In this document: positions 5,265 through 31,782 of the stretch, in pieces
Position numbering within the stretch: position 1 is the first letter of the stretch
Layout of the letters: the number at the start of each line of letters is the position of its first letter
Source: Promethearchaeota archaeon
Lineage (GTDB): Archaea; Asgardarchaeota; Hermodarchaeia; Hermodarchaeales; Hermodarchaeaceae
Assembly (NCBI GenBank): GCA_048939245.1
Contig: JBHLPR010000006.1
Location: 12,504-68,925, forward strand
Direction: 5' to 3'
Length of the DNA: 56,422 nt
Notes under the pieces: model-generated
Seen by the model: the letters and a program-made list of their open reading frames with translations, nothing else
The model's database searches: none
Told to the model about the DNA's origin: nothing
Translations under genes and position numbers: made by a program

Positions 5265-6310
5265 TCTACCTTGATGGTGCGTCGGTGCTTCGCATACTGG
5301 GCATAATCGATGTAGACTTTATCATCGATGTAATCTTGCACCTTGGGTTTTCGTTTCCGTTTTTCTTTGATTGGTTTCATGACTTCCAAATGGAAGGCAT
5401 CACTGCCCGCCCCTGAACCATATGAAACAACCAAAATTTTGTCTCCAGGATTTGCGACTTCAAGGGTAGCTGCTAACCCCAATGGCGAGCTTCCAGCATA
5501 GGTGTTCCCAACATAATCGACAACAAGGGAGGGTTCGATTTGCTTATCCTTGAACCCCAGAGTTTTCGCAGCTCGACGAGGAAACTTACCGTTAGGTGAA
5601 TGAAACACACCCCAATCATAATCGCTGGTTTTAGTTCCCATTTTTTCAAACAAACCCATTGCGGCTTGTTGGACATGCCGGAAGTATGCTGGCTTTCCAG
5701 TAAATCTAGACCCATGTTCGGGAAAATCGGTTCCTTCACGCCGCCAAAAATCGGGTGTGTCGCTAGTATAGGAGAACGTACCTTCGAATCGGGCGACCAT
5801 ATCGTCATCGCTGCCAATGAGAAACGCGGCTCCTCCCGCGGCAGCTGCATATTCTAAGGCATCACCGGGTTTCGCTTGGGCGGTATCGGCTCCAATGGCG
5901 AGCCCGATGTCCACTTCCTTGGATTTCACTAATCCAATACAGACTTGCATCGCAGCGGTTCCCGCTTTACATGCAAAGGAAAAATCTGCACATTGCAAAC
6001 TATTGGGTGCATTAATTGCTTCTGCGACTACTGTTCCGGTTGGTTTAGTAGCATAAACGTGGGATTCAGATCCCACATAAACTGCCCCAATTCGGTTCGG
6101 GTCAATCTGGGCACATTTTAAGGCATTCCGGGCAGCTTCGACCGAGATGGTGGTGGTGTCTTCATCAAGGCCAGGGACACTTTTCTCAACTAAATTCAAT
6201 CCCCGTCCAATGGCTTTTCCGTCTTTACCCCACACTCGGGCGATTTCTTCAACTTTAATGCGATACTTGGGAATGTAACCACCATAACCTAATATTCCAA
6301 CTTCTGGCAC
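5261..6310 (-). CDS. Archaeal hydroxymethylglutaryl-CoA synthase
   Basis: VGSESH, FACKAGT (catalytic Cys), [21 protein letters not shown] and [11 protein letters not shown] motifs. Confidence 0.96.
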
Positions 6311-9304: not shown

Positions 9305-12300
9305 TTACTTTTCTTCATTGGCTGACATTTTCAGTGACCGGTAAGTCGCCAGTCGTTCCTCTTTACTCAAATACTGCAGATGGTCTACCAAAGCATCCTT
9401 CTCTTCTTGTGACAAGCCTGGAATCTTGCTCAACTCACGCCGGATTTCCGCAATCACCTTTGTAGGAATGGCAGGAGTAGGTTGAATATCCGGTGGCAAT
9501 ACAGTCGGAGCGGTCCGATCCTCCGTCAACGCCTTCGACGGTGGCGGCTCCTTTGGTTTCACATCCTCAAGAGGTGGTTCTTCAGGCTCAATCGGAGTGA
9601 CTTTAGGAGCTTCAGGCTCTGTAGTTGGTTCTACTTCAGGCTTTGGTGGTCTTTCTCGTTGAGTGAGGAAGTCCATACGACGCTGACCCATCTGGCGACG
9701 CAAGTCATCGAGGAACCAAATTCGATCCTTCCGTGGAATCTTTCGCATCTCATCTGCCAGGACAGCTTTTTCTTCTGGTCCTAGCCCAGGAATCTTATCC
9801 AATTCACCCATGATATCTTCTTCAGTCGCCGTGACCTCTTCGACTACCTCCACCTTTGGAATCATCGCAGGAGTCACGCCTACACCAATTGGTGTCATTG
9901 CTGAATCGACTTTACTCTCTAAAATCATTCCACGCTCATGGAAGTGTTTCAAATCCTTTCTACCAAGTTTGTAGGTCTCATCCTTTTCAACGGTCTTGGC
10001 AAGTTTCCGCATTCGACGAACTTCCCAAGGAATTGATAGAACACGTGCCCAAAGAATCCAACTCATTAGAAGAACTATTAGTACAATCGCTGCACCGGCT
10101 CCACCATAGACCGCAAAGAGAACTGTGGGATGCGGTTCAAAGGTCATCACCCAATCGGTCAAAGAGGCTGATTCATGAGTAAGCGGTTGAGTCTTTTCTG
10201 CAGTTACTGTCAGTGCCATAGAAGTAGGTCCAAGTGAGAATTGGCTCCACACACCTTGAATCTCATAAAAACCATCTCCTAATGCTATAATTTCGAAACC
10301 TGAAGCATCCAACGTTTGAGGAAGACTTAGGGTTGCTCCATCAATAGGTTCATTGTGCCATGTATCATTTAGATAAAGGCGAATTGAGATTATTGAACCT
10401 ATAAAGAAATTAGCTGATCGGGTTATTGGAGGTGGATTTCCATCAATAGATACTACTGTAAGTTCTGTAGGGATGCTGATGACTTCAAAGTTCGTTGTAT
10501 AGGCTTTGCTTTCATAGTTTGTCTTAGAAATTGTGACGCGAAGCGAGTGGGTTCCTCGACCAAAGAGACTTGCGTTGAGCATGGCTACATATAATCCTCT
10601 GTTGATATCGAAGTGGAACGCCCCTGGAACTGATACATCGCCAACAATAACGAGACCTTCACCGTCCGGAATGGGGATACCCTCTGCATCAGTGTAATTG
10701 AGGTAGATGAAAAGCCAATCGCCAACAGGCACTTGAAGAATATTGATTGTGTTGTTCCATTCATCTCGAACTGATACAATTCCCGTCCGGTCGACGGGGT
10801 TAGTTTGACGTGGTACAATTTGAATAGTCATTATGGTTCGAGGACAGTCAAATGACCCTGGACCATTGAAGTCTAAATATAATTCGTATGTAAATCCAGC
10901 TGCGAGTGTTGCAGGAAATGTGAAATTATAATACCCGCCAGTCCAATTATAAAGTGATGCACTTCCACCTGAAAGTGGGCTCCACGTGGCTGTGATATTT
11001 TGGTTAAGTATTGGCAGATTGTTTTCTGTATCGTTAAGATATATCGTTATTGTAAAGTCTTCGAAATATTCCACTGAAATAAAATAGGTACCTCCTGATG
11101 GTTCCATTTTCGCTGGAGTAAACCGGACATCCATTTGGAATTGCAGCCTTTGGGATTGAACGTTTCGGGTGGCAGTATCAGCAACGACTTCCATTGAATA
11201 AATTAGTTTGCCATAAGTTGATGAATCAAACGCCTTTCCATAAATTCCGGGGGAGATCTCTGGAAGAACATCAGAGCCAATTTCAGTGAATGCGCTGCTG
11301 TAAGTTACAATTGCACCTGTGATATTATCACCAGAAAGTGTTCTAAACCAGACCCCTATGAAATATGGTTGATTAGCATAGAGAGTGAAAGATGTACCTT
11401 CATCTACACCTGGTTCTGGACCACAAAGATAAGTATCCAGTTGACTTGGACCTGCAGTGATCGTATAAGAAATTATACGGGAATCCTCAGCAAAATATCC
11501 CGCTTTCGAAGCAATAATCTCAATGAAGTATGCCCCTTTATCATAGAGAGAACTTATTTCAATCCAATAGGTGCCATTTAGTGCATTCGCGAAGACAAGT
11601 GTTCCATGGTCCCATGTACCAATGACAGTTGCGTCAGTTACAGGATCATTAACATCAGATCCAGCACCGATTGTTAAGTTGATGATTACAATTGGAAATG
11701 GGGTTTCTCCAAAGTATCTCGTGATAACTCCCAAGGTTAAGAGGTCAATCTCTAGGGGGACTTTAAAGATATAAATGGGAATCGAAATATTCTGGAATGT
11801 ATAGAAGTTCTGATGCGCATAAATCCAAATATCAAATTCAGTTCCTGCTGGTAAACCCGAGGTAGCAACGATAAATTCCCACCAACCTCCTCCCAGAGAC
11901 CGATTACTTAGAGTGGTTCCCCCTGTAATAATGTAGTCGATTGGTGGATTATTAAAAACGGCCGAGTCATTATCAAGATTCCAATAACGAACCGTGATAT
12001 TCAAGTCATCACCAGAATACAGTGAACCAGGATCTTTGAAAGCTAGCAGTGTAGTTATGTTCCGGACAGTTCGTGCTACGGGTTCATTGTATTGAGATTC
12101 TAAGAAAGGACTTAATCCTTCAGGATATGTCACATTGACAAAAAATGTATAAGAGCCTATTCCTAAGAGTCGAGTGGAATCGACCCAGATCCGGTATAGA
12201 CCATTACCTTCAAATGTATAATTCCAATCTGTTCCTTGGAGGCCAAAGCCGTGCAGCTCATCACAAAGGAGTGAAATATCAATATCTGGATAATCTGTTT

Positions 12301-15300: not shown

Positions 15301-18073
15301 TTGGAGGATCGTAGTCGATTGTGGTGCCTGTTTCCCGAATAGATACGATGACATCTACTGTACGATTCCCATAATAGGGTGCATTATGGCTAGAAATGCT
15401 ATACCACGAAAAGTTAACAGTAAAGGTATGTTGTCCAACACCGAGGGAAAGGGTGTCGATACTTATATCCCATACTCCTGGAGAACCACTGTAACTGATA
15501 CTTGCATCCGGGGCTACCCATTGAGTTGCCCCTAACCAGACAGACAGGTGAAGTCGGCTTGTACTATTATCAGGTGGTGAACCTCCATCTAAATCAGAAA
15601 GTGTGATGCTGAAGTCAGCGGAAATGCCACTTGGAACAGAACTTGGCGTAGTGGAGGTTAAGAGAGTATTTCGTCCTCTAACAATGATAGTAAAATCAAG
15701 AGTTTGTGATGCATAGTAATCCGATGGATCCGTGACACTCACAGTTAATGTATAAGTTCCTGGTATCCGCCCATCAGCATCAGAATCAGCCTGAATGTTA
15801 TACCACCCAGCTGAGCCACCTGCAGTAATTGAGGTTCCTGACCACCCTGGGGTCGAAAACCAGCCTGCTGCACCAGAAATCCCTACTTCTGCATTATCCT
15901 CGAAGAAGACTTGTAGTGTGAAGGTTTCTTGGTAATAAGCGGTATAACCTGGTGTCGGGGATGAGAGTGTAGTATCACTACGTACTTCTAACCAAATAGT
16001 TGTTTGAGCGGAATCATAAATTGGATCATTGGCGGTCACTACAAAGGCGTGGTCACCAGGGGAAATATAATCGTCTGGGACTTTACCTTGATATAAACTA
16101 CCAGATTGACGGAAAATGATTACAGGATAACCACTCACCAGTCCTGTAATTGTAGTTTGTGAGGTATTAGTTATAAACGGGCTGCCAGTGGTCTCAATAT
16201 CGTTGTATGAGACTCGAGGATATACGAATCCTCCTTCAGCATAATCTACGCTAATTGGGGTTGTTTCAGGTGAAAGACTTGAATCGTGTTCAATATTGAA
16301 GGTAGCATGATAGAATCCAGCATGGGATCCGGTTGGTCCATTATCATAAGAAATGCAGAGGTCATAGGTTCCTGCAGGAAAGAGGTCTCCGTCAGTGAAG
16401 GTATACGTTAGGATTTTCGTGGTACTTGAAATCGTTTCTATGACATCATCAATCTCCTGGTGGTTCTCATCATAGATGGTGAGATTGACATTTCCCGAGG
16501 TTACGCTATCAAAGTTTACAGTAACTGATAGTTGGTTTGGAGTTCGTGGGCTGATCCGGTATATGCTTTGCAATCCAGATACTGACGATATCTGGTTTGT
16601 TGAGGTAAAAGCGAAATTCCACCAACCAAAGGCGTCAATCAGGGAAGCCGGAAGACGCCAATAGATGCTATCGCTTGCTAACAGGACATCATCCGTCTTA
16701 TTGACCAAGTTAGGATCAAAGACACTGCTAAGTGTCCAAATGTCCCCAGCAAGTTTGGCTATTGTGAAATTATAATTCTCATAATATATAGGATAGAAGT
16801 CCGCAAAAAACCAAGATGTCCAGTAGACCTGTTCTCCATGTGTAACAGAAAATGCGGAACCTTCAGGACCCGTTTGTGCTTCTGTTTGACCACTTCGTTG
16901 AATTTTCAAAGTAATGGTGTAATTGAAATCCACGTTTCGACTTAATGCAGCTGCAGTGGACCAGATTGCGGCGATATTGTGGTCAGCAGCATAAGGTCCC
17001 CACGATCCTGATAGACTAATCGTTCCTAGACCATAATTGGTGTCAGTCCAGGAACTGGTACTATTCAAACGCAGTTGTATGCCATTACTAATTGGACTCG
17101 GTTTTCCTCTCACCACGAGTTTGACATTATCGAATTCCATATAGAAGGCGTTGTTAATCCTCCAATCGAAGTCCACCGTCATTCCAATTGTAACATTGAT
17201 TGTGTCAGATGTCCAGTCATCGAGTTCATCGACTGATAGAGAAAATTCGATTGGATGGAATCCCCACCCACCTCGATAGGCATTAAGGGCGTAACGATGG
17301 CAGACAAAAACACGTTCAGCACCACCAACTTCTGCGTAAACAGCCATTTCGTCATCGTCGTCTCTTCCGTGGATACCATCATCATAGAATTGAACATCAA
17401 AGGATAGTGTAGCACTTGTGGCGTCTATTCGGTTGAGGTCGATAACTTGTGTCCAACCGACATATTCAATGTAGGTTGCATTAGATACCCAATCATAATA
17501 TGGGTTCGTGCAGTTCGCTAAAACAGCCACTCCATCGCCAGTTTCTCCCCACGATGCTCCATAGTACCAATCAATACCCGCCAGACCATAGCCAGACATT
17601 CCGCGTTTACTTTCAACCCAATAGGTTGGTGAAGTTGTTCCACTTTCAAAATTCCCGTTTCGAGTATTACCTTCAATATGTGAAATGTTATCAAACAGGT
17701 TGAACACATTCGCAGTCAGTTCGTATCCCGTCCAACCTTGTGGAAGCTGAATTTGTCCCAAACGTGTTTCACCAAAATCAAGATCCGAAACAAAGAGCGT
17801 ACTAGTAGTTCCGGATGAATATTCTTGCGTTGTGAGAACTTGTCCTAATCCTTCATACAGATATTCAGTCCCATCCCAACTTGGACCTTCAGGTGGTGGT
17901 GTTAACGGAGATGAGGGTAAATTTGTATTTGGATTATCGTTTCCGCTAGCCTTGATATTGGGAGCTGTTCCAATTATCGGAGTAATAAGGCTGAGCGTTG
18001 AAAATAGAAAGAGCGTGAGAAATGTCAAACAGACTAGAGTTCGACGATTCATACATATCGACCTCGAGGACAC
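9305..18073 (-). CDS. Giant single-pass surface protein A (2922 aa): signal peptide, jelly-roll-like tip, Ig-like stalk, TM helix, conserved cytoplasmic tail. Start may be ATG at ~18052.
   Basis: Uninterrupted 8.8-kb ORF. Hydrophobic N-terminus; NGNFESG...EFDNVKL; ~100-aa repeats rich in Thr/Ser/Val/Tyr; TM segment AVYGGAGAAIVLIVLLMSWILW; many N-x-S/T sequons. Confidence 0.9.
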   Translation of the reverse strand: MSSRSICMNRRTLVCLTFLTLFLFSTLSLITPIIGTAPNIKASGNDNPNTNLPSSPLTPPPEGPSWDGTEYLYEGLGQVLTTQEYSSGTTSTLFVSDLDFGETRLGQIQLPQGWTGYELTANVFNLFDNISHIEGNTRNGNFESGTTSPTYWVESKRGMSGYGLAGIDWYYGASWGETGDGVAVLANCTNPYYDWVSNATYIEYVGWTQVIDLNRIDATSATLSFDVQFYDDGIHGRDDDDEMAVYAEVGGAERVFVCHRYALNAYRGGWGFHPIEFSLSVDELDDWTSDTINVTIGMTVDFDWRINNAFYMEFDNVKLVVRGKPSPISNGIQLRLNSTSSWTDTNYGLGTISLSGSWGPYAADHNIAAIWSTAAALSRNVDFNYTITLKIQRSGQTEAQTGPEGSAFSVTHGEQVYWTSWFFADFYPIYYENYNFTIAKLAGDIWTLSSVFDPNLVNKTDDVLLASDSIYWRLPASLIDAFGWWNFAFTSTNQISSVSGLQSIYRISPRTPNQLSVTVNFDSVTSGNVNLTIYDENHQEIDDVIETISSTTKILTYTFTDGDLFPAGTYDLCISYDNGPTGSHAGFYHATFNIEHDSSLSPETTPISVDYAEGGFVYPRVSYNDIETTGSPFITNTSQTTITGLVSGYPVIIFRQSGSLYQGKVPDDYISPGDHAFVVTANDPIYDSAQTTIWLEVRSDTTLSSPTPGYTAYYQETFTLQVFFEDNAEVGISGAAGWFSTPGWSGTSITAGGSAGWYNIQADSDADGRIPGTYTLTVSVTDPSDYYASQTLDFTIIVRGRNTLLTSTTPSSVPSGISADFSITLSDLDGGSPPDNSTSRLHLSVWLGATQWVAPDASISYSGSPGVWDISIDTLSLGVGQHTFTVNFSWYSISSHNAPYYGNRTVDVIVSIRETGTTIDYDPPSAEPWGNDMVITVRYVIDDPPLSGGITGISKVDVSCELGGVPYAGFGWTSLGGGAYEITIYSSVISQVQVYWLDITINDPTDSYQEASRILTFSIRGHQTQTIVDQPDPTPYGQQTSVTITWRDLDTATDLTDTQLSQLTLEFINSTGLPNELSLSFTLDTSAWNPGSYEIIVTTVPNSNQYLGSSGTLRITILIHQTAVTVLPPEATPVGYTTDITIQWSDLTAGGQIAYTEVENITITGAISDVVFGPLSSWTFTLDTSGLTIGTYSITVTVYAKTTPTQIYEHSTGSLNNGLVIRAHRVYVLVTGPPPVPEDGQIFISISWTDLDTGLSIGTSILDHVEVTYISGPPSHPSLPYTNTTSLSFYIDATGWDTGTFQLNCTVYPLITEPYDTGWGQVNIIIRVHSITADIDPIPRVPFGYDVPITFRVNDSDLLPSMGLPENHIVSIIITGGPSTLTLNSANWATWVNNGTAGDGIYVIILDVSSWALGTYVLTFNVETSVEYGNGFVTTQLTTRPLATSFTYQSPPVVPWGEDGKLIVRFLVDDTDPITTNPITNPISGASISIDTLTLGVDYGFVYWQNGKYNITFYSSHLTFVDEYLFDITINGGAQYDIGQLDDVPLKVRALFTWLHPTDVPVTPFGNDVIIEIEYIVLDGESSQYGDPIHTGSESIIVTGLDGFNPTSVTWEWVSAFSVYRVTIDASEVTNIQAYKIMISISGSGAGYEPDTIPELTFNVRTVFTALAVAPVDAQAYLDNFTIQITYTVNDPDSSLNGWGIDGQASIIELVEYPGLFDVIPFGNGIYNIVINSTNIGAPGSYLANIYTDWTQSPPPYAVQTRQVTLFITNRPTTIQNTIGGEFGYLEEIRVNFTYSDQLRTEWILNTSYGGGLLLISVYNTTPAIPVLIDNAAWYVVTIAGVDAFQLRIDADYFDRVGSFDFKVEVTWQPGTAPYFVAREFEFRAYVYGQRTDIIMQQSAGATPYDTNIIIEFEFITEQGDPINQTDYPDIDISLLCDELHGFGLQGTDWNYTFEGNGLYRIWVDSTRLLGIGSYTFFVNVTYPEGLSPFLESQYNEPVARTVRNITTLLAFKDPGSLYSGDDLNITVRYWNLDNDSAVFNNPPIDYIITGGTTLSNRSLGGGWWEFIVATSGLPAGTEFDIWIYAHQNFYTFQNISIPIYIFKVPLEIDLLTLGVITRYFGETPFPIVIINLTIGAGSDVNDPVTDATVIGTWDHGTLVFANALNGTYWIEISSLYDKGAYFIEIIASKAGYFAEDSRIISYTITAGPSQLDTYLCGPEPGVDEGTSFTLYANQPYFIGVWFRTLSGDNITGAIVTYSSAFTEIGSDVLPEISPGIYGKAFDSSTYGKLIYSMEVVADTATRNVQSQRLQFQMDVRFTPAKMEPSGGTYFISVEYFEDFTITIYLNDTENNLPILNQNITATWSPLSGGSASLYNWTGGYYNFTFPATLAAGFTYELYLDFNGPGSFDCPRTIMTIQIVPRQTNPVDRTGIVSVRDEWNNTINILQVPVGDWLFIYLNYTDAEGIPIPDGEGLVIVGDVSVPGAFHFDINRGLYVAMLNASLFGRGTHSLRVTISKTNYESKAYTTNFEVISIPTELTVVSIDGNPPPITRSANFFIGSIISIRLYLNDTWHNEPIDGATLSLPQTLDASGFEIIALGDGFYEIQGVWSQFSLGPTSMALTVTAEKTQPLTHESASLTDWVMTFEPHPTVLFAVYGGAGAAIVLIVLLMSWILWARVLSIPWEVRRMRKLAKTVEKDETYKLGRKDLKHFHERGMILESKVDSAMTPIGVGVTPAMIPKVEVVEEVTATEEDIMGELDKIPGLGPEEKAVLADEMRKIPRKDRIWFLDDLRRQMGQRRMDFLTQRERPPKPEVEPTTEPEAPKVTPIEPEEPPLEDVKPKEPPPSKALTEDRTAPTVLPPDIQPTPAIPTKVIAEIRRELSKIPGLSQEEKDALVDHLQYLSKEERLATYRSLKMSANEEK

Positions 18074-18285
18074 GGTTCAAGCACGTAAATATGATCTAAG
18101 GGCAGTACGTGGCTTTTGTGCATTGATCACATGCCACCCTTCACCCAAAGGTTCCTCTGGAAATGGTGCTAAACCGCTACAGAAACGCCTCAGTGGCGCT
18201 TTAAAAACATTTAGCTGTAGCATTATCTATACAATAAGGCAAATAAAGAACCGCAACGCTCTACCGGCTCACAGGATGCTACGTT

Positions 18286-21200: not shown

Positions 21201-24200
21201 CTCCTTTATCATCAAGTGTTACTTGGTCAATCCACCAAAACGTATCATCCCATCCAGGAATGTCATCTTCAACAGGTAAGACGCTGATTCCAACATTTCC
21301 TGTGTTATTATTAATTGGTTGGCCTTCGGCAGTTTCGTAATGTAATGTTAGATTCAGGCTTTCTCCAAAGGGCACTCCTTGAACTGCGTCCGCGAATCCT
21401 ACAGTTGGAGTTCCTGCTACGCGGACTGTGAATGTGGCTGAAGCATTGGCATAAAAGGGAGCATTACCGACCCATGTCACGTTGATATTAAAATCGTAGT
21501 AGACATCGACTTTGCCCATATCGCTAGCCAGAATGCGTATCGTAAAGACATAGTTGGGGTTCGAATAATCCGCGGCAACCCAATATTGGGTATCGAGCAA
21601 TGTACCATCTGAAGCATTAATCACATAGATGCGAACATCACTACCCCACGTGGTATTATCAATTTTCAATCCCGAAAGAATGTCAAAATAGTTTACATGG
21701 ATGGTAATGTTGTTCGCATAGCCTGTATCTGGTGGAAGTGTGATGCGGGCTTGTGTAGCTCTTTCTGTAGTCGTTAAGCTTGCAAGTACCCATTGAGGTT
21801 TATAGGTGGGTATGGGATCGAGCCAATCAATGGTGATGTTAACCTGCCAAATGCCTGGGCCCGGGGTGAAGCTGGAGTTGATATAGATATAGTAGATGCC
21901 ATTGCCAGCATCAAATACACTGTATTCTCCGGGATTTAATGTCCACGGGCCAATAGCGGCTACGGTGATGTCGGTTGCCCCTGCAATCCCTAACCCATTT
22001 TGTGAGCTGAGGTCGTCGCGAACCCGATAAATGACGGTCATGGTGAAGTTAGTGTTGTAGGCTGCTGCTTCGACGGGAGGTTTCTCAACTTCCGTGTAGA
22101 CAGTTCGAACATTAAAGCCCATACTGGGGATGTTCGCGAGTCGATATTGCGGAGGCAGAGAGGCATTAATGGCGATATGGTAAGCACGAATGGTTGGAAG
22201 GACGGATTGATCGATTTCGATGATATAGGCGCCTCCGCCTATAGAGTGAATCTGATAGCTGCTACCGAGGGTGAAATCTAGTCCCTTAACGGTGATGGTT
22301 GCGCCAAGGATTGGGCCTTCGTGGTAGATGCTTTGGACATCGAAGACAATGTAGTTGACGGTGATGTTGACATCATCGCCGAAGGGTTGGCTTGGTACTT
22401 GCGAATAGGCGAGGGTGGTAAAGAGTTGCCGGACATCTAGTGGCACATTATCCAATGCTGCTCCATAATAGTTAGCTCCGGCTGCAATTTGAATATCAAG
22501 ATAGTAGATTTGCACTTGATCGATGAACGCAGCATTGATTGTGATGATATATGTTCCTGGGGTTCCACTGGGTGCAGAATTGAATTGAATGCCTTCGGTC
22601 CACCCCGATATGGTGATTGTTGCTCCAGTGATTGCTTCGGTATCATGGGTGCTTCCTTCGTCTTGCACATGATAATGGACAAGAAGGGTTCCGTCATTTC
22701 CCCATGGAATCGGGGTCGCTGGCGTGAAGAGAAAAGAAGTTGCCAATGCTCGAATAGTGGCTGAAGTCTGAATTGTGCCATCATTATACTCTGCTGTTGT
22801 TTTCGAAGTAATAATAATCGCATGTGATCCAAGCGACCATGAAGCGGCTGGAAGAAGAACACTATAAACACCAGTCGTGATGTTGGTTACGAAAAGTGTC
22901 CAGTTGGTCCAATCGTAGATCCACCTGCTCCCTCCTGCTAAGATTGTAATACGCTCTATGCTTCCATCAAGCGGGCTGTTCAGGTCACTATCATTAACAC
23001 GCATGGTGAACCGAGTGTTATTATTCCAGGGGATTTGGGGGATGGGGTCAATATCAATTCGAATATTGTGTCGGCGAATTTGAATGGTGACTAATCCCCA
23101 TTGAATATCGTATCGTTCCGTATCAAGGGGATAGACCGTGACATTGAGCGTGTGGAGGAGCGTTGGCCATCCCTGCGCGGATAAAAGGAAGCTCAATGAA
23201 TAGTTTACAGCGGTTGGGCTTGGATAGCCAAGGCTGCCGGTGGTGGTCACATAGTCAAGGTAACTTTCGGGTATATCTCCACCCGTGTCGACATCTTCCC
23301 AGAATACTGTGATGTTTACATCTCCACCTTCTGGGATGGTGCTGGGTGGGTTGATGACGACATTCACGCGGTGACGTCGAATCGTGATTTGGGTTGTCGC
23401 CCAGGCATCACCATATTTTCTGCCTACTGACTCTGCGTACACTGTGACATTGATGGGATGGGTACCAAAGTTCCAAGGTGGCATCAAGGTCGTGTCTAGA
23501 TTGAAGGCAAGTTGGGTAAACCATTCCAGTTGTGAACCGGAGGTTCGGTTATACACGTAGGTCCTGTAAAGGTTGGAGGGGTCGATAGGGCTATTTCCTA
23601 AGTCGAGATCACGCCATTCCACAACGATGGGGGTGACGGTGCCCCAAGGTGTGGGGCTGGGTGGTTGTACGATGACGTTGGTGTAGTGGATGCGGATGGT
23701 AATGGGAATCTGTGCGGAGGCATGTTGGTAGAGGGCACTGGACGAATAGAAGTTAACTGTGACGTAGTAGGTGTTGGGGGATTGCCAGACGGTATCATCG
23801 GTGGTGTCAAGGTCAAAGGTGAAGGTATAAAAAGTCTGGTCGATGGCATCGGGGCAGTCGGTAATGGTAATATTATCTAAGTTCGAGGAGACATAGACAC
23901 CATCATCGAGGTCCCACCATTTGACAATGAGGTGGGTGGAGAGTCCCCAGGCAGTGGCGCTGGGTGGGGTAATATCAAGTCGCATGGCATGGGAGCGAAT
24001 GGTCACGGTAACGGGTCCACTAGAATTGTAATAGTTTGTATTGCCAAAAACCCAAACAGTGAGGGCATAACTACCAACGCTCCAGGTGTTTGTGGGAAGC
24101 GTGAAGATCAGGGCCGTATCCATATACGGGAGTCCAGGACCGGAACCGGCCACAGTTACGTTGTTGAGATTGATTTCAGCAATGAGGGCATCGATGTCTA

Positions 24201-27200
24201 CATCGCGCCAGTATACGACAAGTTGGGTGTCATCGCCCCAAGGTTCAGCGGCAGGGGGGTCAACGGTGACACTCACATAGTGTGCCCGAATCGTGATGGT
24301 GACCTGATAGGTGCCGATTTCATATTCTTGTTCGGGTATCACCAGTGGGTTGACAGTGACAGTAACAGTGTAGGAGCCTACATTCCATGTGAGGGTGTCA
24401 AGAGTAAAACTTAGTCCACTGAAGTCTTGATCACCGGTTGGACCACCCGTGATGGTCACGTTCTTAAGATTACTAGAATCGATGGTCATGCCAGTATCTA
24501 AGTCCTTCCACGTAATCGTCATCGGCGTATTAGCACCCCAAGGGGTGGGTGGTGGCGTTGGTACCACTATTTCGACACGATGGACGCGAATTCCAACGGT
24601 GACGCTGCCAACGGCATCACTGTAATATCGGGTGTTCGTAGCGTATATCGTGACTGTGAGAGTTTCGCCCATGCTAATTGGCCAAGTGCTAGTAATGAGA
24701 GTAGGTGTCAGAGTCAGAAATGATTGGTCACCACCTATTGGACAATTTGAGATGATGACTTGGGATAGGTTGTTGAGGGGGACTGCTGCTCCCGTGTCGA
24801 GATCGGTCCAAAGTATTACGAGATTTGTATCGAAGCCCCACGGGGTAGGGGCAGGAGTTTCAACGACGACGGCGGTGTAGTGGATTCGGATGGATACGGT
24901 GAGGTTTGAGCTGCTTTGATAATACCACCCTTGCCCGAGGTCTGGCTGTATGGTGACGGTGAGAATATGGTTGCCAACAACCCAGCCATTGGTATCAATG
25001 GTGAAGCTTAAGGCGAAGAAAGTCTGGTCGCCACCAAATGGACAATTCGTAACCACCACTTGGGAGAGATTACCTGTTGGGACATTTGTGCTTCCTAGAT
25101 CTAAGTCGACCCAACTAAGCACAATAGGTGTATCGAAGCCAAATGGGGTCTGACCAGGAGGAGAGACGATGGTTTGGGTTTGGTGGGGGCTAATGGTAAC
25201 AATTACTGGACCATTTCCTGGATTGTAGGAGGCATTGCCATACACCCAGACTACGAGGTTATGTCCGCCAACTGTCCAGCCGGAGGTGCTTAAGGTGAAT
25301 GCAAGTTGAGAGACCGAATAGGGAAGGTTTGGTTCGGTTCCAGTGACTGTCACGTTGTCAAGGGCACTAAGATCAATTAATGTGTCCGTATCTACATCCC
25401 GCCAAATGACGGTTAATTGTGTATTTTTGCCCCAAGGTGTGGGGGTGGGAGGGCTTACAGTGACGCTGACATAATGGGCTCGAATTGTAATAGTCAACTG
25501 GTAGTTGGCTGTTTCATATTCTGTAAAGGGTGTGGTGATTGGATAGACGGTAATATTGAGAGTATATTGACCGATACTCCAAGTGTTCGTAATTAGAGTG
25601 AAGGTGAGGCTGGTGAAGGTTTGGTCGCCACCCACGGGACAATCTGATACCACAATGGTATCGAGGTTTGCTCCGTCAATCGTAGTCCCAGTGTCTAGGT
25701 CCTTCCAGGTGACACTCATGTCAATGATATTGGACCCCCAGGCTGTCGGGGCAGGGGTGGGGACGACGACTTCGACGCGATGGATTCGAATGACGACGGT
25801 GACGCTTCCCCAGGCGTCGCTATAGGTGCGAGGTCCAGTTGTGGCGTATACGGTGACATTCAGAGTATAACCACTGCTAATATCCCAGCCTGCGGTATCG
25901 AGGGTGAAGGTGAGGCTGGTGAAGGTTTGGTCGATGAAATCGGGGCAGTCCGATACGACAACTTGGTATAGTTGTGCACCGGGGACATCGATACTCGAGT
26001 CGAGATCTGTCCAAATGACAGTGATTTGGGTATTAAAGCCCCAAGGTCTGGGATTTGGAGGTTGTACTATGACTCCTGTGTAGTGGATGCGAATTATTAC
26101 TGTTGTATTGGAGCTACTGCCAAGATATTGACTTGAGGATGAAAACGTTGTGACTGTAATTACGTATTCACCAATATTCCATGTGTCGGTATCGAGGGTG
26201 AAGGTGAGGCTCGTAAAAATCTGATTACCACCCACAGGACAATTGGACACTACAATTTGCAGAAGATTACCGCCAGGTACGTTGGCACTTCCCTGATCAA
26301 GGTCCAACCAAGTTACCGCCATTGGTGCATCAAACCCGAAGGGCGTTTGCTGAGGTGGCGTGACTACAGTTTGGGTTTGATGACCACGAATGGTCACCGT
26401 GACTTGTCCACTATTTAGTACGTAATCGGTGGTTCCATAGACCCAGACCGTTAACAGATGACTACCCACACTCCAGCCATTAGTGGTCAAGGTGAAGCTG
26501 AGAGAACTAAAACTCTGATCACCACCCACGGGACAGTTGGTGACCGTGACATTATCGAGATTGACTTCGGCAATTATGGAGTCAGTGTCTACATCACGCC
26601 AAGTAATTGCCAAGTCTGTATCATAACCCCATGGGGTTTGAGCTGGAGGATCAACAGTGACACTCACGTAATGGGCCCGGATAGTCACTGTTACCAAATA
26701 GTTTGTTATTCTATAGAGCTGTGGGCTCATTTCGGGAAATACGGTCACATTTAACGTGTAACTCCCTTGGCTCCAAGTGCTAGTGATGAGGGTAAAAGTA
26801 AGGCTTGTAAAAGTTTGGTCGCCACCGACAGGACAATCGCTAATGGTAATGTTATCCAAGTTAACACCAGCGATAGTGGTACCGGTGTCTAGATCTTTCC
26901 AGGTGACTGTCATATCCTCAATGTCGAAGCCCCAGGGAGTGGGAGGTGGTGTGGGGACGACGACTTCGACACGGTGAATTCGAATAACAACGGTCACTGA
27001 CCCCCAGGCGTCGCTATAAGCGCGAGGACCCGTTGTCGCATACACGGTGACATTAAGCGTGTAGCCAGTGCTGATAGTCCAACCCGTGGTATCAAGCGTG
27101 AAGGTGAGGCTGGTGAAGGTTTGGTCGATGAAATCGGGGCAGTCCGATACCACAACTTCATAAAGATCCCCGCCTGGAACTGCTGATCCAAGGTCAAGGT

Positions 27201-30200
27201 CACTCCAAAGCACTGTGATCTGAGTATTAAAGCCCCAGGGGGTTGGATCTGGAGGTTGCACCGTCACACCGGTATAATGGATTCGGATAACTACTGTGGT
27301 GTTGGAGCTGCTTCCCAAGTAGGAGCTCGATGACGAAAAAGTCGTAACAGTTAGAGTGTACGTCCCTACATTCCATGCATCCGTATCGAGGGTGAAGGTA
27401 AAGCTTGTGAAAGTCTGATCGCCGCCAACCGGACAATTGGAGACCACAATTTGTAAGAGGTTGGCACCGGGGACGGGGTTACTTCCTTGATCGAGGTCCA
27501 ACCAACTCACGATCACTGCTGTGTCAAGTCCAAAGGGTGTTTGTTGGGGTGGTGTGACCACGGTTTGGGTTTGATGGCCGCGAATGGTCACGGTGACAGG
27601 CCCACTTCCCGCTCTATAATCGGCATTTCCGTAGACATAGACTGTCAGCAGGTGACTACCCACGCTCCAACCGTTAGTAGTTAGGCTAAAGCTGAGGGTG
27701 GCAAAGGTTTGGTCGCCGCCCACGGGGCAGTTGGTGACTGTTACGTTATCGAGATTTATTTCGGCAATTATGGAGTCGGTATCCACATCACGCCAGGTGA
27801 TGGTCAGATCGGTATCGTAGCCCCAGGGAGTTTGGGCAGGAGGATCGACGGTGACGCTTACATAATGGGCCCGAATAGTAATCGTTACTTGGTAACTGGT
27901 TATCGCATATTCTTGTTGTGGGATCATGTTCGGGTATACAGTTACATTCAGTGTATAGCTACCTTGACTCCACGTGTTAGTGATAAGGGTAAAGATGAGA
28001 CTGGAAAAAACTTGGTCGCCACCGACAGGACAATCGCTAATGGTAATGTTATCCAAGTTAACACCAGCGATAGTGGTACCGGTGTCTAGATCTTTCCAGG
28101 TGACTGTCATATCCTCAATGTCGAAGCCCCAGGGAGTGGGAGGTGGTGTGGGGACGACGACTTCGACGCGGTGGATACGAATGACTACAATGACACTTCC
28201 TGAAGCATCACTATAGGATTGTGGACCAGTTTTGGCGTATACTGTGACATTGAGGAGATAACCAGCGCTGATATCCCATCCTGAGGTGTCGAGATTGAAA
28301 ATGAGGGTGGTAAAGGTTTGGTCGCCGCCTACGGGGCAATCAGAAACCACTATTTGAGATAATTCGCTTCCTGGGACGCTGCCACCAATATCAAGATCTG
28401 TCCAAAGAACGATGATTGTCGTGTAAAATCCCCAAGGAGTTGGATCTGGGGGTTGCACCGTTACGCCAGTATAATGAATTCGGATGACCACGTTGACTGT
28501 GGTGCTATCTCCTTCGTACCATCCAGGAGGATTTGCAGGATTTACGGTTACCGTGAGTACATAGGTACCAACCGACCACCCATTCGTTTGGAGCCAGAAT
28601 GAAAGACTACCAAAGGTTTGGTCACCACCCACGGGACAGTTGGACACCACGACGCTGGATAGGTTTCCTGGGACATCAGTTGCTGTTTCGAGATCAGTCC
28701 ATACTATTGAAATTAGAGTATTTTCACCCAGTGCAGTTTGTGCTGGGGGATCGACTATCGCTTGAGTCTGGTGGGCACGAATATGGAAGAACAGTCTTCG
28801 ATTTGCCCCCGCGTAGATATCTGTAGCATCATTTACTACAAGATAAAGTTCGTAAACATCAACTTGGGTAATGTCAATTGTATAAAGGGTTAAGCGATAT
28901 TGACCTGATCCAAGGTGTGTCCAACCAAAACTGCTTACGGCTGAACTATTTAAGGTACAAGAGACTTCGGATACCCCGATTGTAGTAATACCATCTCCGT
29001 GATAACCACTTGCTGGGTCATCCACGTCATAGTAGAAGATGATTTCTAGGTCATTTCCCCAAGGTTCAGGAGCCGGCGGATCATAGCTTAATATGGTTTG
29101 AAGTTCACGAATAGTGAAAGTCAGGGTTCCACTTGTACTGCCATATTTTGTATCCGTGGGATCCGCAGTGATTCGAAGTGAGTAGCTTTTGATGAGAGAG
29201 ATTTTACCACTTATTGCAAGGATGGTGACATTATAGGAACCGTCTCCATAGTTTGTGAATAGATAATCCACATCTTGTGTGAGAATGGTTCCATCGAGTC
29301 GAACCACAAAACTCGCACTAGCAATCGCATCGCCATCGTATTGACTCTCAAGATCGCTCACATTGAGGGTAAAGAGAATTTCCACATCCTCGTCATATGG
29401 AACAGCCCCCGGTGGATCGTAATTGATTGATGTGGAGATTTCTCGGACTACAATCGTTAGCACGAGTGTGCGGGTCGTGTAATAGTTTAGGCTAGCTTGA
29501 ATGCTAAGGGAATAGGTGCCAGGAGTAGGTCGAGACCCCGCATTTAAAGTGATATTGTACCATCCTGCGGTACCGTTGCTTGTTCCAGTGGGTCCCCAAT
29601 TGGTGGTTACGGTGGCTCCAGCAATTCCCTGACCACCTGTGTAGTTGTAAAAGACTTGGATGGTAAAGGATTCGTCATAGGGCACGGTTAGTCCTGGGGA
29701 CTGGGGGGAGGATAAGCTGGCGTCGCTTCGGACTTGGAGATTAATATTACAGGTGGCTTTTTCGTAGAAGGGTGCTGTGGCTTCTATGGAAAGAACGTAA
29801 TCGCCTGGGTCCAGCAGGTCATTGGCGATTTGGGCTTGGTAGCGACTCCCAACTTGGACAAAAATAATCGCGTTTCCATCAACAGTTCCATTGACACGGA
29901 CATTGCCGGTGGTGTTTCCAATAAATAAATTAGATCGGTCGGCATCCGTAAATGATACGCGTGGATAATAGTAACCTGAAGTGGAATGGGTCACCGTCAT
30001 CGGCGTGTCTTCAGGAGTTAGGTCGGTATCATGGGTCAGGTTAAAATACGTGGAATAGAATCCGGTGAAAATAATATCCGCATTGACTCCATTATCATAA
30101 CTTATACAGAGGGAATAGCGGCCTGCAGGGAAGTTCGCTCCGCTGGTGAACTCAACATAAAATGAGGTTGTTAGGGAGCCGGTCCATGAGTTGGTTTGGT

Positions 30201-31782
30201 TCACAAGAGCTGATCCGCTGGAATGATAGAGACTAAGATTGGCTTCACCATAGTTTTCGGTGAATGTGACATCAATGTCTAGCGCATAGGGGGTCCGGGG
30301 AGAAATTACATAGTTGTCCACCAGACCTTCAATTAATGAGTAGCGGTTTGTGCTACTGAAGGTAAATTTCCACCAACCAAAGACTTCGTTTATCGCAGAG
30401 CTATTAAGGGTGATTTGGGTTGAGGAATTTTCAACCCAGGAAAGCCGTTGAGTCCCTAATGGGTCAATCACGGAGGTTAGCGTCCAGGTTGTCGGTTTCG
30501 AAATCGTGAGGTTATACGCTTCAAACCCATAGGGTTGATAGGCATAATACCAAGTCTCAAAACTCGTTGCAGAAGCATTTTCGCACACAAATAAACTGCC
30601 AATCTGGGTGCTTTGAATGGTCTGTTTAGTGAGCCCTTCTTTACGAATGAATAACGTCAAATCACAGGCGAGGTCAATATTATCTGCGGTTGTTGTGAAA
30701 TTGTTAAGGATAGCAATCCAGTTGGTGCTGGGATTCGCTTTGGGCAAATCTCCACCTGTCAAGTTAAGATTTCCTGCTCCATACCCATCATTTACAACGG
30801 CTGTTCCATTAATTTGTAAACCAACTTGAGTAGGTTGGGGTTGAGCCCGAACTTGCAGGACGACATCATCAAAATCTACTGAATATCTACAAGTTGACCA
30901 GGATCCTGAAGTATCTGTCCAAGAAATTCCTAATGTGATGTTTAGATTCCCTGGTAAACCTAATTTTGCGATATCAGATGCTCCGAGGTCAATAGTTAGG
31001 TCATACCAACTACCTGCACTGCCTATTGATGCAAAAGTAAGACGCCGTTCAACTACCTGGTCACCTTCGAGTTGAACTAGGACTACCATTCTTCCCCATG
31101 CTCCCCCATCGATATGGGCATTCAATCTACATTTGAAATCTAATCTAACAAGACTTGGAGCAGCTCGTGGAATATTCACAGTCTGATAATATGCACCAAA
31201 ATAGCTAGAACTCCAAGACCATTCTGGAGGATATTCCCATTCTACAAGGGTGCGAATTCCATCTGAAGGGCCATAGCCATAATTGCCATATGAACCGTTA
31301 ATATTTGCGTAGTTAATCGGATCGCCATTCTCAATATAATTCCAATTTGTTGGTGAACCAGGCTCTCCGTAGGTTCCTGACTCAAAGTCGCCGTTTGATT
31401 GCCATGACCGATTTTCAAACAGATTATAAATGGATGCAGAGGTCTTGTAAGCCGTCCATTGGGTGGGTAGCTGGGCACTCGCGGCCACTGATTCGCCAAT
31501 GTCGAGATCAGTAATTGTCTGCGCTTCATAGGTGCCCTGGGTCATTTCCCATGTCTGGGAAGTGTTTCCTGTTCCCAAGTACTTGTATTTGCCCTCATCA
31601 TAGGTTGGCCCTGATGGTAGAGGCGGTGAATTCACCCCTTGGCCATTCACGTGTCTCAGATTCTGGCTGTTCTCCTTAAATGGGTCATTTAAGCCTACTC
31701 CGTTCCAAGGTGTTGAAACAAGTAATGGAGAAACAAAGACTAAGGAAAAAAGAAAGAGTACAAGCAAAGAATAGTGTTTCAT
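18286..31782 (-). CDS. Giant single-pass surface protein B (4498 aa), paralog of protein A with an expanded stalk
   Basis: Uninterrupted 13.5-kb ORF with the same domain order as A. NGDFESG...DFDDVVL; TM segment IISGIGAAIFLTFVLILWTLW; tail highly similar to that of A. Confidence 0.92.
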   Translation of the reverse strand: MKHYSLLVLFLFSLVFVSPLLVSTPWNGVGLNDPFKENSQNLRHVNGQGVNSPPLPSGPTYDEGKYKYLGTGNTSQTWEMTQGTYEAQTITDLDIGESVAASAQLPTQWTAYKTSASIYNLFENRSWQSNGDFESGTYGEPGSPTNWNYIENGDPINYANINGSYGNYGYGPSDGIRTLVEWEYPPEWSWSSSYFGAYYQTVNIPRAAPSLVRLDFKCRLNAHIDGGAWGRMVVLVQLEGDQVVERRLTFASIGSAGSWYDLTIDLGASDIAKLGLPGNLNITLGISWTDTSGSWSTCRYSVDFDDVVLQVRAQPQPTQVGLQINGTAVVNDGYGAGNLNLTGGDLPKANPSTNWIAILNNFTTTADNIDLACDLTLFIRKEGLTKQTIQSTQIGSLFVCENASATSFETWYYAYQPYGFEAYNLTISKPTTWTLTSVIDPLGTQRLSWVENSSTQITLNSSAINEVFGWWKFTFSSTNRYSLIEGLVDNYVISPRTPYALDIDVTFTENYGEANLSLYHSSGSALVNQTNSWTGSLTTSFYVEFTSGANFPAGRYSLCISYDNGVNADIIFTGFYSTYFNLTHDTDLTPEDTPMTVTHSTSGYYYPRVSFTDADRSNLFIGNTTGNVRVNGTVDGNAIIFVQVGSRYQAQIANDLLDPGDYVLSIEATAPFYEKATCNINLQVRSDASLSSPQSPGLTVPYDESFTIQVFYNYTGGQGIAGATVTTNWGPTGTSNGTAGWYNITLNAGSRPTPGTYSLSIQASLNYYTTRTLVLTIVVREISTSINYDPPGAVPYDEDVEILFTLNVSDLESQYDGDAIASASFVVRLDGTILTQDVDYLFTNYGDGSYNVTILAISGKISLIKSYSLRITADPTDTKYGSTSGTLTFTIRELQTILSYDPPAPEPWGNDLEIIFYYDVDDPASGYHGDGITTIGVSEVSCTLNSSAVSSFGWTHLGSGQYRLTLYTIDITQVDVYELYLVVNDATDIYAGANRRLFFHIRAHQTQAIVDPPAQTALGENTLISIVWTDLETATDVPGNLSSVVVSNCPVGGDQTFGSLSFWLQTNGWSVGTYVLTVTVNPANPPGWYEGDSTTVNVVIRIHYTGVTVQPPDPTPWGFYTTIIVLWTDLDIGGSVPGSELSQIVVSDCPVGGDQTFTTLIFNLDTSGWDISAGYLLNVTVYAKTGPQSYSDASGSVIVVIRIHRVEVVVPTPPPTPWGFDIEDMTVTWKDLDTGTTIAGVNLDNITISDCPVGGDQVFSSLIFTLITNTWSQGSYTLNVTVYPNMIPQQEYAITSYQVTITIRAHYVSVTVDPPAQTPWGYDTDLTITWRDVDTDSIIAEINLDNVTVTNCPVGGDQTFATLSFSLTTNGWSVGSHLLTVYVYGNADYRAGSGPVTVTIRGHQTQTVVTPPQQTPFGLDTAVIVSWLDLDQGSNPVPGANLLQIVVSNCPVGGDQTFTSFTFTLDTDAWNVGTYTLTVTTFSSSSSYLGSSSNTTVVIRIHYTGVTVQPPDPTPWGFNTQITVLWSDLDLGSAVPGGDLYEVVVSDCPDFIDQTFTSLTFTLDTTGWTISTGYTLNVTVYATTGPRAYSDAWGSVTVVIRIHRVEVVVPTPPPTPWGFDIEDMTVTWKDLDTGTTIAGVNLDNITISDCPVGGDQTFTSLTFTLITSTWSQGSYTLNVTVFPEMSPQLYRITNYLVTVTIRAHYVSVTVDPPAQTPWGYDTDLAITWRDVDTDSIIAEVNLDNVTVTNCPVGGDQSFSSLSFTLTTNGWSVGSHLLTVWVYGTTDYVLNSGQVTVTIRGHQTQTVVTPPQQTPFGFDAPMAVTWLDLDQGSANVPGGNLLQIVVSNCPVGGNQIFTSLTFTLDTDTWNIGEYVITVTTFSSSSQYLGSSSNTTVIIRIHYTGVIVQPPNPRPWGFNTQITVIWTDLDSSIDVPGAQLYQVVVSDCPDFIDQTFTSLTFTLDTAGWDISSGYTLNVTVYATTGPRTYSDAWGSVTVVIRIHRVEVVVPTPAPTAWGSNIIDMSVTWKDLDTGTTIDGANLDTIVVSDCPVGGDQTFTSLTFTLITNTWSIGQYTLNITVYPITTPFTEYETANYQLTITIRAHYVSVTVSPPTPTPWGKNTQLTVIWRDVDTDTLIDLSALDNVTVTGTEPNLPYSVSQLAFTLSTSGWTVGGHNLVVWVYGNASYNPGNGPVIVTISPHQTQTIVSPPGQTPFGFDTPIVLSWVDLDLGSTNVPTGNLSQVVVTNCPFGGDQTFFALSFTIDTNGWVVGNHILTVTIQPDLGQGWYYQSSSNLTVSIRIHYTAVVVETPAPTPWGFDTNLVILWTDLDTGAAVPLNNLSQVIISNCPIGGDQSFLTLTPTLITSTWPISMGETLTVTIYATNTRYYSDAVGSVTVGIRVHRVEIVVPTPPPTPWGANTPMTITWKDLDTGMTIDSSNLKNVTITGGPTGDQDFSGLSFTLDTLTWNVGSYTVTVTVNPLVIPEQEYEIGTYQVTITIRAHYVSVTVDPPAAEPWGDDTQLVVYWRDVDIDALIAEINLNNVTVAGSGPGLPYMDTALIFTLPTNTWSVGSYALTVWVFGNTNYYNSSGPVTVTIRSHAMRLDITPPSATAWGLSTHLIVKWWDLDDGVYVSSNLDNITITDCPDAIDQTFYTFTFDLDTTDDTVWQSPNTYYVTVNFYSSSALYQHASAQIPITIRIHYTNVIVQPPSPTPWGTVTPIVVEWRDLDLGNSPIDPSNLYRTYVYNRTSGSQLEWFTQLAFNLDTTLMPPWNFGTHPINVTVYAESVGRKYGDAWATTQITIRRHRVNVVINPPSTIPEGGDVNITVFWEDVDTGGDIPESYLDYVTTTGSLGYPSPTAVNYSLSFLLSAQGWPTLLHTLNVTVYPLDTERYDIQWGLVTIQIRRHNIRIDIDPIPQIPWNNNTRFTMRVNDSDLNSPLDGSIERITILAGGSRWIYDWTNWTLFVTNITTGVYSVLLPAASWSLGSHAIIITSKTTAEYNDGTIQTSATIRALATSFLFTPATPIPWGNDGTLLVHYHVQDEGSTHDTEAITGATITISGWTEGIQFNSAPSGTPGTYIITINAAFIDQVQIYYLDIQIAAGANYYGAALDNVPLDVRQLFTTLAYSQVPSQPFGDDVNITVNYIVFDVQSIYHEGPILGATITVKGLDFTLGSSYQIHSIGGGAYIIEIDQSVLPTIRAYHIAINASLPPQYRLANIPSMGFNVRTVYTEVEKPPVEAAAYNTNFTMTVIYRVRDDLSSQNGLGIAGATDITVAAIGPWTLNPGEYSVFDAGNGIYYIYINSSFTPGPGIWQVNITIDWLDPIPTYKPQWVLASLTTTERATQARITLPPDTGYANNITIHVNYFDILSGLKIDNTTWGSDVRIYVINASDGTLLDTQYWVAADYSNPNYVFTIRILASDMGKVDVYYDFNINVTWVGNAPFYANASATFTVRVAGTPTVGFADAVQGVPFGESLNLTLHYETAEGQPINNNTGNVGISVLPVEDDIPGWDDTFWWIDQVTLDDKGAGGIYRILINGSKLPGFGSYVFAINFTWPPELEPGNEDFFESTTLFVAGQVQEIITFLEWEQNEDLYYGELLNITVWYVDTYNDENVTGVIWDLNPNLEYTNSTGKLGSMILLINTSSAPAGQFTFTLTANRPNYIEASRAISVQVKSHPLNLNRIQPVGLVWECNYLDDIEIIVYLESALPGGEPIRWANITFNWEGSLGLLNQIGDGHYNTTLHSIDAGAGTWQLILRVEWGLNYTQPILVYTLTINQVATEMNVPPGSYAEITKTVESNIQLNISFTSSGVPIPGADVYAIEGGTRIANFSWVDPYYIVSLETADWEVRPYQILVTAISANYEQGNQLIIINLIHKPLVIITFDSDFVNTTTNTIETDYGDIVTFDIFLQDSLNGSGILGATMNCTWGLHEYTLTYNATHGRGWYTVNFTADDRPGSYAFKIIHEIQQKYARIEHLLTFKLNSRNTTLQFIDGWTWRIIDGEFKNVSLNPDDALWEIPRYDTLFLVFQFLDKNDMVLTPSDFVIARFSAASVYDLNYSSGLWFVEVNLDAYYQSALTVNFYDIESYFVSRSFTLQLNVIQTPTTLRWADPNQLPLNDIYYVGEPIILSVVYWDQYHQCAISGADFQLDGVIENSVVRYLGPDENNPGYYEIEVSGSWPAQGIITFTVTKTDYDDAELAQFFSLQFTELTNMLIISGIGAAIFLTFVLILWTLWARVLSIPWEVRRLRKFAKSIEKDQTYSLGRKDRKRFHVRDAVLESKVDSAMSTIGVTMTPAMVPVVTITEEVTATQEDIISELDKIPGLGPEEKAVLAAEMRKIPMKDQVWFLDDLKRQMGEKRMDFLTKREPAAAPPKEAPPPKLPPPEKVPPPKKLTPRKEVPPKKAPKPPKPDLPPLEDVEPVEPPDSKVFTEDRTAPTVLPPDLQPIPSERPEVVEEIRRELDKIPGLTKEDKVSLVDHLKHLTKEEREATYRSLRQTTEE
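24000..28780 (-). repeat. Intragenic tandem super-repeat: 4 copies of ~1195 bp, each made of 4 Ig-like domains
   Basis: Domain-start motifs cycle in the order HQTQ, HYTG, HRVE, HYVS. 26815-26970 is identical to 28012-28167 (156 bp, offset 1197). 25904-25956 is identical to 27098-27150 (53 bp, offset 1194). Confidence 0.92.

Follow-up and report, generated by a model that had tools for sequence, protein, structure and literature searches.

A conserved membrane-proximal motif in the tails of giant Asgard surface proteins and its predicted longin/winged-helix adaptor

The stretch of DNA analysed here (the window; 56,422 nucleotides of a Hermodarchaeial genome) carries two giant genes side by side, and raises the question of why a pair of surface proteins should keep a closely similar tail while their outer parts drift apart, and what such a tail might hold on to within the cell. 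The original prediction, made from the DNA letters, took genes A and B for members of a family of Asgard transmembrane receptors that join different ectodomains to one intracellular effector, possibly the cytoskeleton. The Asgard origin was borne out, the nearest named relatives being Candidatus Hermodarchaeota and Hermodarchaeum yapensis, and the two adjacent, co-oriented open reading frames of 2922 and 4498 aa are present, both on the minus strand and 212 bp apart (Table 1). In the database annotation A begins at the ATG at 18052 and is 2915 aa long. Assembly contigs from a sequencing run that is a possible source match the stretch through the A–B junction, and a second sample contains a 4.7-kb piece of it at a match of ~98%.

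Table 1. Positions of genes A and B and of their parts within the window.
Feature	Position	Strand	Description or basis
Gene A	9305-18073	-	2922 aa; giant single-pass surface protein
A signal peptide, ~residues 8-35	17969-18052	-	Hydropathy; inferred from sequence
A N-terminal head, all-beta	16604-17896	-	AlphaFold model, pLDDT 84
A jelly roll, carbohydrate-binding-module-like, residues 125-323	17105-17701	-	Fold comparison
A stalk, Ig-like beta-sandwich repeats of ~100 aa	10130-16603	-	19 profile matches plus one preceding domain; first two domains folded
A transmembrane helix, ~residues 2652-2677	10043-10120	-	Hydropathy and tail model
A juxtamembrane (JM) motif, residues 2678-2747	9833-10042	-	Predicted adaptor-binding site; near-pan-Asgard
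A three-helix unit 1, residues 2751-2796	9686-9823	-	Tail model; outside predicted adaptor interface
A Pro/Glu/Lys-rich linker, predicted disordered	9470-9655	-	pLDDT about 46-58
A three-helix unit 2, residues 2871-2921	9311-9463	-	Tail model
Gene B	18286-31782	-	4498 aa; paralog of A, same layout
B head region	30349-31617	-	32% identical to A head; sequence comparison
B stalk, ~34 Ig-like repeats	19168-30348	-	Repeat profile
B transmembrane helix	19081-19161	-	Hydropathy
B JM motif	18871-19080	-	68% identical to that of A; profile and identity comparison
B unit 1, Pro-rich linker and unit 2	18295-18861	-	Unit 1, 18724-18861; unit 2, 18295-18432

In each protein a hydrophobic segment occurs once near the N-terminus and once near the C-terminus, with none in between, and both show the architecture of a type I single-pass receptor: signal peptide, ectodomain, one membrane helix and cytoplasmic tail. 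Residues 59-1488 of A align with 54-1442 of B (35% identity), and 773-2920 of A with 2374-4498 of B (33%). All four of the sequence motifs quoted in the original prediction are found in both proteins, and the colinearity from signal peptide to C-terminus holds overall, but B has ~15 additional stalk repeats of ~100 aa. B is longer than A because of these extra repeats, part of which come from tandem duplication of a four-repeat block (28491-26571 against 27294-25374, with a period of 1197 bp and 74.5% DNA identity). Taking ~4 nm per domain, the extended stalks would measure roughly 80 nm (A) and 140 nm (B). There are 44 N-glycosylation sequons in the ectodomain of A and 84 in that of B.

Folding of the ectodomain covered residues 60-700 of A, which are modelled as all-beta. 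The jelly roll lies in the head, the most variable part of the family; its best match is an alginate-binding carbohydrate-binding module (8zqf; VIA Z 12.9, rmsd 3.5, 162 aligned), and residues 491-700 form two Ig-like sandwiches. In the folded part of A, then, a distal binding-type domain sits on a stalk of tandem beta-sandwiches, as in fibrillar adhesins, and the head may bind a glycan or a surface ligand. Different parts of the ectodomain have different closest relatives: residues 1-900 of A are 73-84% identical to P0001 and 31-45% to the L012 protein, and residues 1350-2550 are 80-85% identical to the L012 protein and 25-45% to P0001. The simplest reading of this pattern would be that ectodomains are mosaics, with segments exchanged beneath a constant tail.

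The prediction of a transmembrane protein with a cytoplasmic tail fits both the single C-terminal helix and the positive-inside asymmetry around it (in A, 10 Lys or Arg in the 35 residues after the helix and one in the 35 before). Because of this asymmetry, and because sequons occur outside only, the topology is assigned as type I with the tail in the cytoplasm, although the sequon-free tails are also nearly devoid of Asn. The tails of A and B are 245-264 aa long, and in the tail model two membrane-adjacent helices, which make up the JM motif, are followed by a three-helix unit, a disordered Pro-rich linker (with six PxxP sites in A) and a second three-helix unit. The JM motif of A contains an invariant Pro2682, a basic amphipathic helix and a second helix with a conserved Arg2714.

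Searches with the tail against Pfam, NCBIfam and PDB sequences returned nothing specific, and no NCBIfam CTERM, S-layer or sorting-signal model matched it at E<=1, in keeping with the expectation that it is not a known anchor or S-layer domain. The integrin tail motifs GFFKR and NPxY are absent from both tails. Fold searches with the tail model gave generic helical matches only, a result that does not itself show a novel fold. Units 1 and 2 resemble the B/Z domain of protein A, likewise a small three-helix bundle of ~45 aa, with VIA Z of 5.5 and 5.2, in the range of common helical arrangements; homology is not implied and the units are cytoplasmic. The best Foldseek match of a unit to helix-hairpin-helix/SAM folds is weak (E 1.2, RecR), and a GhG hairpin is seen in unit 1 only and is substituted in several paralogs. 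Soluble three-helix-unit proteins were considered as homotypic partners and rejected, none being encoded in the genome, where all 17 copies of the unit lie within the eight tails. A resemblance by eye of the first helix of unit 2 in other paralogs to the ESCRT MIM1 motif was discarded, the key Arg being absent from A and B.

The contrast between tail and ectodomain on which the original prediction was built is genuine. A and B are 69% identical over 238 aligned tail residues and 35% over 2482 ectodomain residues, and silent sites are saturated in both regions (pS 0.74 in the tail, 0.75 in the ectodomain), with 55 of 79 four-fold sites differing in the tail. The tail of A is no closer to that of B than to those of other species (73-78% identity), and unit 1 retains 82-95% identity across orthologs and paralogs. 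Recent gene conversion of the tails is rejected, since silent sites are saturated and tail A is no nearer to tail B than to other species' tails; comparison of the coding sequences indicates instead that the tail is under purifying selection. The reading that the tail is a plain membrane anchor, or that its likeness in A and B reflects recent duplication or gene conversion, is on these figures largely refuted. Archaeal surface proteins often carry a basic cluster behind a C-terminal helix, as a plain anchor would have it, but the tail matches no CTERM or S-layer model, and tails of 60-260 aa are conserved position by position in most Asgard families.

How far does this conservation extend? Eight paralogs in the genome carry the tail, including a tandem array of four on contig C15, and the JM profile separates them cleanly (eight matches at E<1e-13, the next at 0.29). 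With an iterated profile, 304 of 400 Asgard genomes were found to encode large surface proteins that end in a membrane helix followed by the JM motif, and about 50 loci checked by eye proved to be real matches. The consensus comprises an invariant Pro, an Arg four residues later, a basic amphipathic helix and a later conserved Arg. The proteins that bear it range from 500 to 7000 aa and have very different ectodomains; one Hermodarchaeial member lies within a 7129-aa open frame (L084/L085, G018:C29). Many Asgard tails consist of the JM motif alone, the three-helix units being an addition in Hermod, Thor, Odin and some other lineages that is absent from many Loki-type tails, including those of an organism shown to crawl. 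The conserved tail of the original prediction is thus correct, but the broadest conservation belongs to the ~65-aa membrane-proximal motif and not to the entire tail, and the receptor family proposed from two genes is near-pan-Asgard in extent. About nine families are almost all motif-negative and appear to be Heimdallarchaeia. Three families that are otherwise negative gave adjacent matches to motif and adaptor on small contigs of Loki-type sequence, which were set aside as probably mis-binned. All named matches of the profiles are Asgard, which hints at restriction to this group. No description of the JM motif or of the motif–adaptor pair was found in the papers searched, which covered little of the subscription literature.

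The candidate adaptor came to light on examination of the neighbours of motif genes. It is an unannotated protein of ~360-380 aa with a longin-like N-terminus, called from sequence pattern, and two winged-helix-like units, called from weak HTH matches (TrmB, MarR, ArsR) in the middle and C-terminal parts. Pfam, NCBIfam and PDB sequences gave nothing specific and no Pfam longin match, and in the ESM Atlas the family falls in clusters of archaeal hypothetical proteins. In a closed genome of 6,035,313 bp an adaptor of ~380 aa directly follows four of the five motif genes, with a homologue two genes from the fifth, and in L. ossiferum-type genomes there is one adaptor copy per surface gene. Across seven closed Loki-, Odin- and Atabeya-type genomes a full-length copy lies <=7.5 kb from 28 of 29 motif genes, the chance expectation being about 2-3% per gene; the profile had been seeded with some of the linked copies, though with none of those of G029 and not with several of those of G199, G155 and G147. 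In a single genome, surface protein, JM motif and adaptor are fused in frame (L112), and the start Met of the adaptor is missing. The adaptor was found in 310 of 400 Asgard genomes, with the same family-by-family pattern as the JM motif; the joint absence is essentially one clade-level event, and counts as weak evidence.

Adaptor and tail genes are unlinked in Hermod, Thor and Freya-type genomes. The present genome has one adaptor gene (contig C86:1946-3490) for its eight tails, near none of the tail genes, and this single-copy candidate answers to the idea of many ectodomains served by one intracellular effector. The Hermodarchaeial adaptor has an extra C-terminal extension of ~150 aa, rich in Lys and Glu and missing in other lineages (L100:3052-3490, G000:C86). 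Several further features of these loci were recorded. The three adaptor copies of one genome (L092:3559-4701, L092:12139-13281 and L093:3651-4793) are ~99% identical as proteins, while the intervening giant genes differ widely. In three Loki-type genomes the genes for adaptor and surface protein are separated by one for a protein of 750-900 aa with a TrmB-like HTH and a long helical region (L091:9451-12150, L098:9296-11650, L099:12023-14293), which has homologues here on contigs C70 and C86; in two Atabeya-type genomes this place is taken by a small gene of ~163 aa (L116:6065-6559, L120:8308-8793), and a further gene, for a longin alone, lies upstream. Single-pass proteins of a different family, with a longin-like cytoplasmic tail, are encoded in a genome from one of the motif-negative families (L059:937-2031, L060:937-3105).

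Structure prediction places the two partners together. Co-folding of this genome's 369-aa adaptor core with residues 2673-2807 of tail A scored 0.84, 0.84 and 0.85, and the best of three controls 0.00; of 80 solved complexes 58 reach the mark applied, as do 2 of 110 mismatched pairs. This calibration holds only roughly here, given the shallow custom alignments used, and the result applies to tail A. The runs agree in >=70% of contacts, with partner pLDDT >=69. The predicted interface joins residues 2681-2747 of A, which is exactly the widely conserved motif, to residues 205-251 and 332-367 of the adaptor, and covers the invariant residues of both families, including Asp205, Tyr244, Pro334 and Tyr366 of the adaptor. 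Neither unit 1 nor the longin-like domain is listed in this interface, and the first winged-helix unit is mostly outside it. No similar complex was found among solved structures searched by sequence. Gene order, the natural fusion and structure prediction all indicate that the motif grips the adaptor, and we consider it probable that the tail binds the adaptor through the JM motif.

What lies beyond the adaptor is suggested by its other neighbour. In five of five other Hermod genomes a gene for a longin-Arf-like GTPase lies immediately ahead of the adaptor gene, and all five full-length adaptor genes of three closed genomes (two Thor and one Freya-type) are directly followed by such a gene. 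The present genome encodes about six longin-Arf paralogs; here the GTPase gene lies at the end of contig C39, a contig that shares a 77-bp overlap with the beginning of C86, and one inserted gene separates it from the adaptor gene. The adaptor gene thus adjoins either surface-protein genes or the GTPase gene, as expected of a bridge between the two; from this gene order we put direct contact of adaptor and GTPase at an even chance. Directly upstream of the longin-Arf GTPase gene lies a gene, kept in Hermod genomes, for a longin-like protein with a C-terminus that appears TFIIB-like by eye and has no Pfam match (L105:540-1559, G000:C39).

We favour, with a probability of about 0.55, a mechanism in which variable adhesin-type ectodomains recruit, through the JM motif, an adaptor whose longin-like domain serves as a platform for an Arf-like GTPase at sites of contact. 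A and B would be fibrillar, glycosylated proteins of the adhesin or receptor type, with a variable glycan- or surface-binding head, a long Ig-like stalk and a constant tail, in which the JM motif just inside the membrane would serve as the docking site for the conserved cytoplasmic adaptor. The C-terminal half of the adaptor would grip the motif and leave free the longin-like domain, which would most likely pair with the longin domain of the neighbouring Arf-like GTPase. Surface contact could in this way recruit the GTPase switch and lead to local remodelling of the membrane or of protrusions, and the three-helix units may form a second, lineage-restricted docking site. A broader version, in which most Asgard lineages inherited an ancestral pathway from receptor through longin/winged-helix adaptor to Arf-like GTPase, with interchangeable giant ectodomains reporting contact and the GTPase shaping protrusions, we advance tentatively, as somewhat short of an even proposition.

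The step in which the tail binds the adaptor is shared by this mechanism and by an alternative in which the JM motif is a label for sorting or biogenesis, read by adaptor and GTPase to place, cluster or recycle surface proteins without any outside-in signalling. Coat adaptors work in this manner, for example in delivery to protrusions or vesicles, and the binding prediction, the gene linkage and the fusion would fit this too. The N-terminal domain of the GTPase has a weak match to the clathrin adaptor small chain (E 0.004), and a motif that is often the whole tail, on proteins of such different size and ectodomain, suits a label. Permanent fusion to one surface protein and the provision of one adaptor per surface gene in L. 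ossiferum-type genomes favour a stable complex instead, and we regard the sorting label as unlikely. The tail might also sequester the adaptor as a winged-helix transcription regulator, to be released when the ectodomain is bound or cleaved, for which the RsgI-SigI pairs of Clostridium provide a model of the logic. The weak TrmB, MarR and ArsR matches, the position of the first winged-helix unit mostly outside the predicted interface, the TFIIB-like look of the protein at the beginning of the Hermod cluster and the CBM-like head are all compatible with such control, but recurrent linkage to a longin-Arf GTPase is not what it would lead one to expect, fusion to a membrane protein would block release unless cleaved, and the longin and winged-helix repeats of NPRL2/3 are not established DNA binders (PMC3747258). 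It is distinctly unlikely.

The original prediction named the cytoskeleton as a possible effector, and we found no direct connection of the tail to it and nothing that speaks either way. That the three-helix units or the Pro-rich linker bind Lokiactin or its regulators directly seems very improbable. Unit 1 is hyperconserved and free in the co-fold model, the linker of A offers its PxxP sites, and Asgard cells that crawl on actin-filled protrusions need adhesion (10.1101/2025.11.30.690169); against this, no actin-binding fold or family was matched by the tail, the length of the linker varies freely, and the units are missing from many Loki-type tails, the crawling organism's among them.

Recruitment of an adaptor by a receptor tail invites comparison with the type I adhesion receptors of eukaryotes (cadherin-catenin, RPTP-mu, Eph, IgCAMs), which like A and B combine a jelly-roll head, Ig-like repeats and one membrane helix; for the conserved tail of A and B, likewise, docking of a cytoplasmic adaptor at the inner face of the membrane is predicted. 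The model of the head and Ig-like domains of A retrieves the ectodomains of RPTP-mu and Eph by fold class, with low TM-scores. A and B nevertheless have no sequence or family homology to these receptors and no kinase or phosphatase, and the adaptor is unrelated to catenins or talin. Membership of the cadherin or IgCAM family is not supported. The calcium motifs DxNDNxP and LDRE have no match in A or B, there is no Pfam cadherin match, and the tail shows no catenin-binding match.

Bacterial fibrillar adhesins and archaeal S-layer or surface glycoproteins share with A and B a signal peptide, a distal binding domain, a repeat stalk lengthened through tandem duplication, numerous sequons and exchange of segments between alleles. 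Such proteins end in short anchors or sorting signals, unlike the long conserved cytoplasmic tails of A and B with their predicted dedicated partner.

The apparent layout of the adaptor is closest to NPRL2/NPRL3 of GATOR1 (Npr2/Npr3 in yeast), in which an N-terminal longin is followed by winged-helix repeats (PMC3747258). Both are genetically linked to a small GTPase, Arf-like in the case of the adaptor and not Rag. NPRL2-like longins have been noted in Asgard archaea, with no link to surface proteins (10.1101/2020.10.19.343400), and binding to a surface tail of the kind predicted here is not reported in those papers. Neither this genome nor the adaptor genes of three others gave a Pfam match to NPR2 (PF06218). 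The GP motif that precedes the second strand in GAP longins (NPRL2, FLCN, SMCR8, C9orf72; PMC12290439) occurs in one of 19 adaptor members and a WDxxxG-like motif in 14 of 19, and the N-terminal 125 columns hold no invariant Arg.

L. ossiferum has no ordered S-layer and displays many unidentified protruding surface structures (PMC9834061), and Asgard cells crawl with actin-filled protrusions (10.1101/2025.11.30.690169). From the papers searched, we know of no Asgard adhesion receptor, adaptor or upstream input for small GTPases or longins; the observation is genuine, the receptor–adaptor system goes undescribed in that literature, and its mechanism is in part a prediction. The system is a candidate for what connects surface and interior of the cell in prokaryotes that are closely related to eukaryotes. 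If the proposal is true, it would be a prokaryotic counterpart of eukaryotic adhesion signalling and would give NPRL2-like longins and Arf-related GTPases a physiological job that predates eukaryotes. That the module was not found in the apparent Heimdallarchaeia families matters for claims about eukaryotic ancestry. What the window contributes is a Hermodarchaeial example of a passing co-fold despite unlinked genes for receptor and adaptor, with one adaptor for eight tails; it also adds the selection test and the mosaic ectodomains. A 70-aa tail peptide, the adaptor core and the 289-aa GTPase make up an expressible set with predicted contact residues, and homologous genes are present in cultured strains, so that surface-to-interior coupling of the Asgard cell becomes directly testable.

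Other genes in the window deserve brief mention. Two kb upstream of B, at 33911-36001 on the minus strand, lies a gene for a 696-aa protein with no Pfam match and an N-terminus that is longin-like (sigma-adaptin-like) by eye. A Ras/Rab-like small GTPase (46536-47201, plus strand; Pfam Ras, E 9e-32) adjoins a histone deacetylase family gene at 45240-46394, and HMG-CoA synthase, thiolase and ChsH2/DUF35 stand in a row at 3434-6310 on the minus strand, the usual archaeal mevalonate-pathway cluster. A 436-aa protein with many zinc-ribbon repeats is encoded at 41762-43072 (plus strand). Finally, the segments 36135-37646 and 47272-53675 hold membrane-rich open reading frames, a GT2 glycosyltransferase, a nucleotidyltransferase and an LPG-synthase-like flippase, and together possibly form a surface glycosylation locus near the giant genes.
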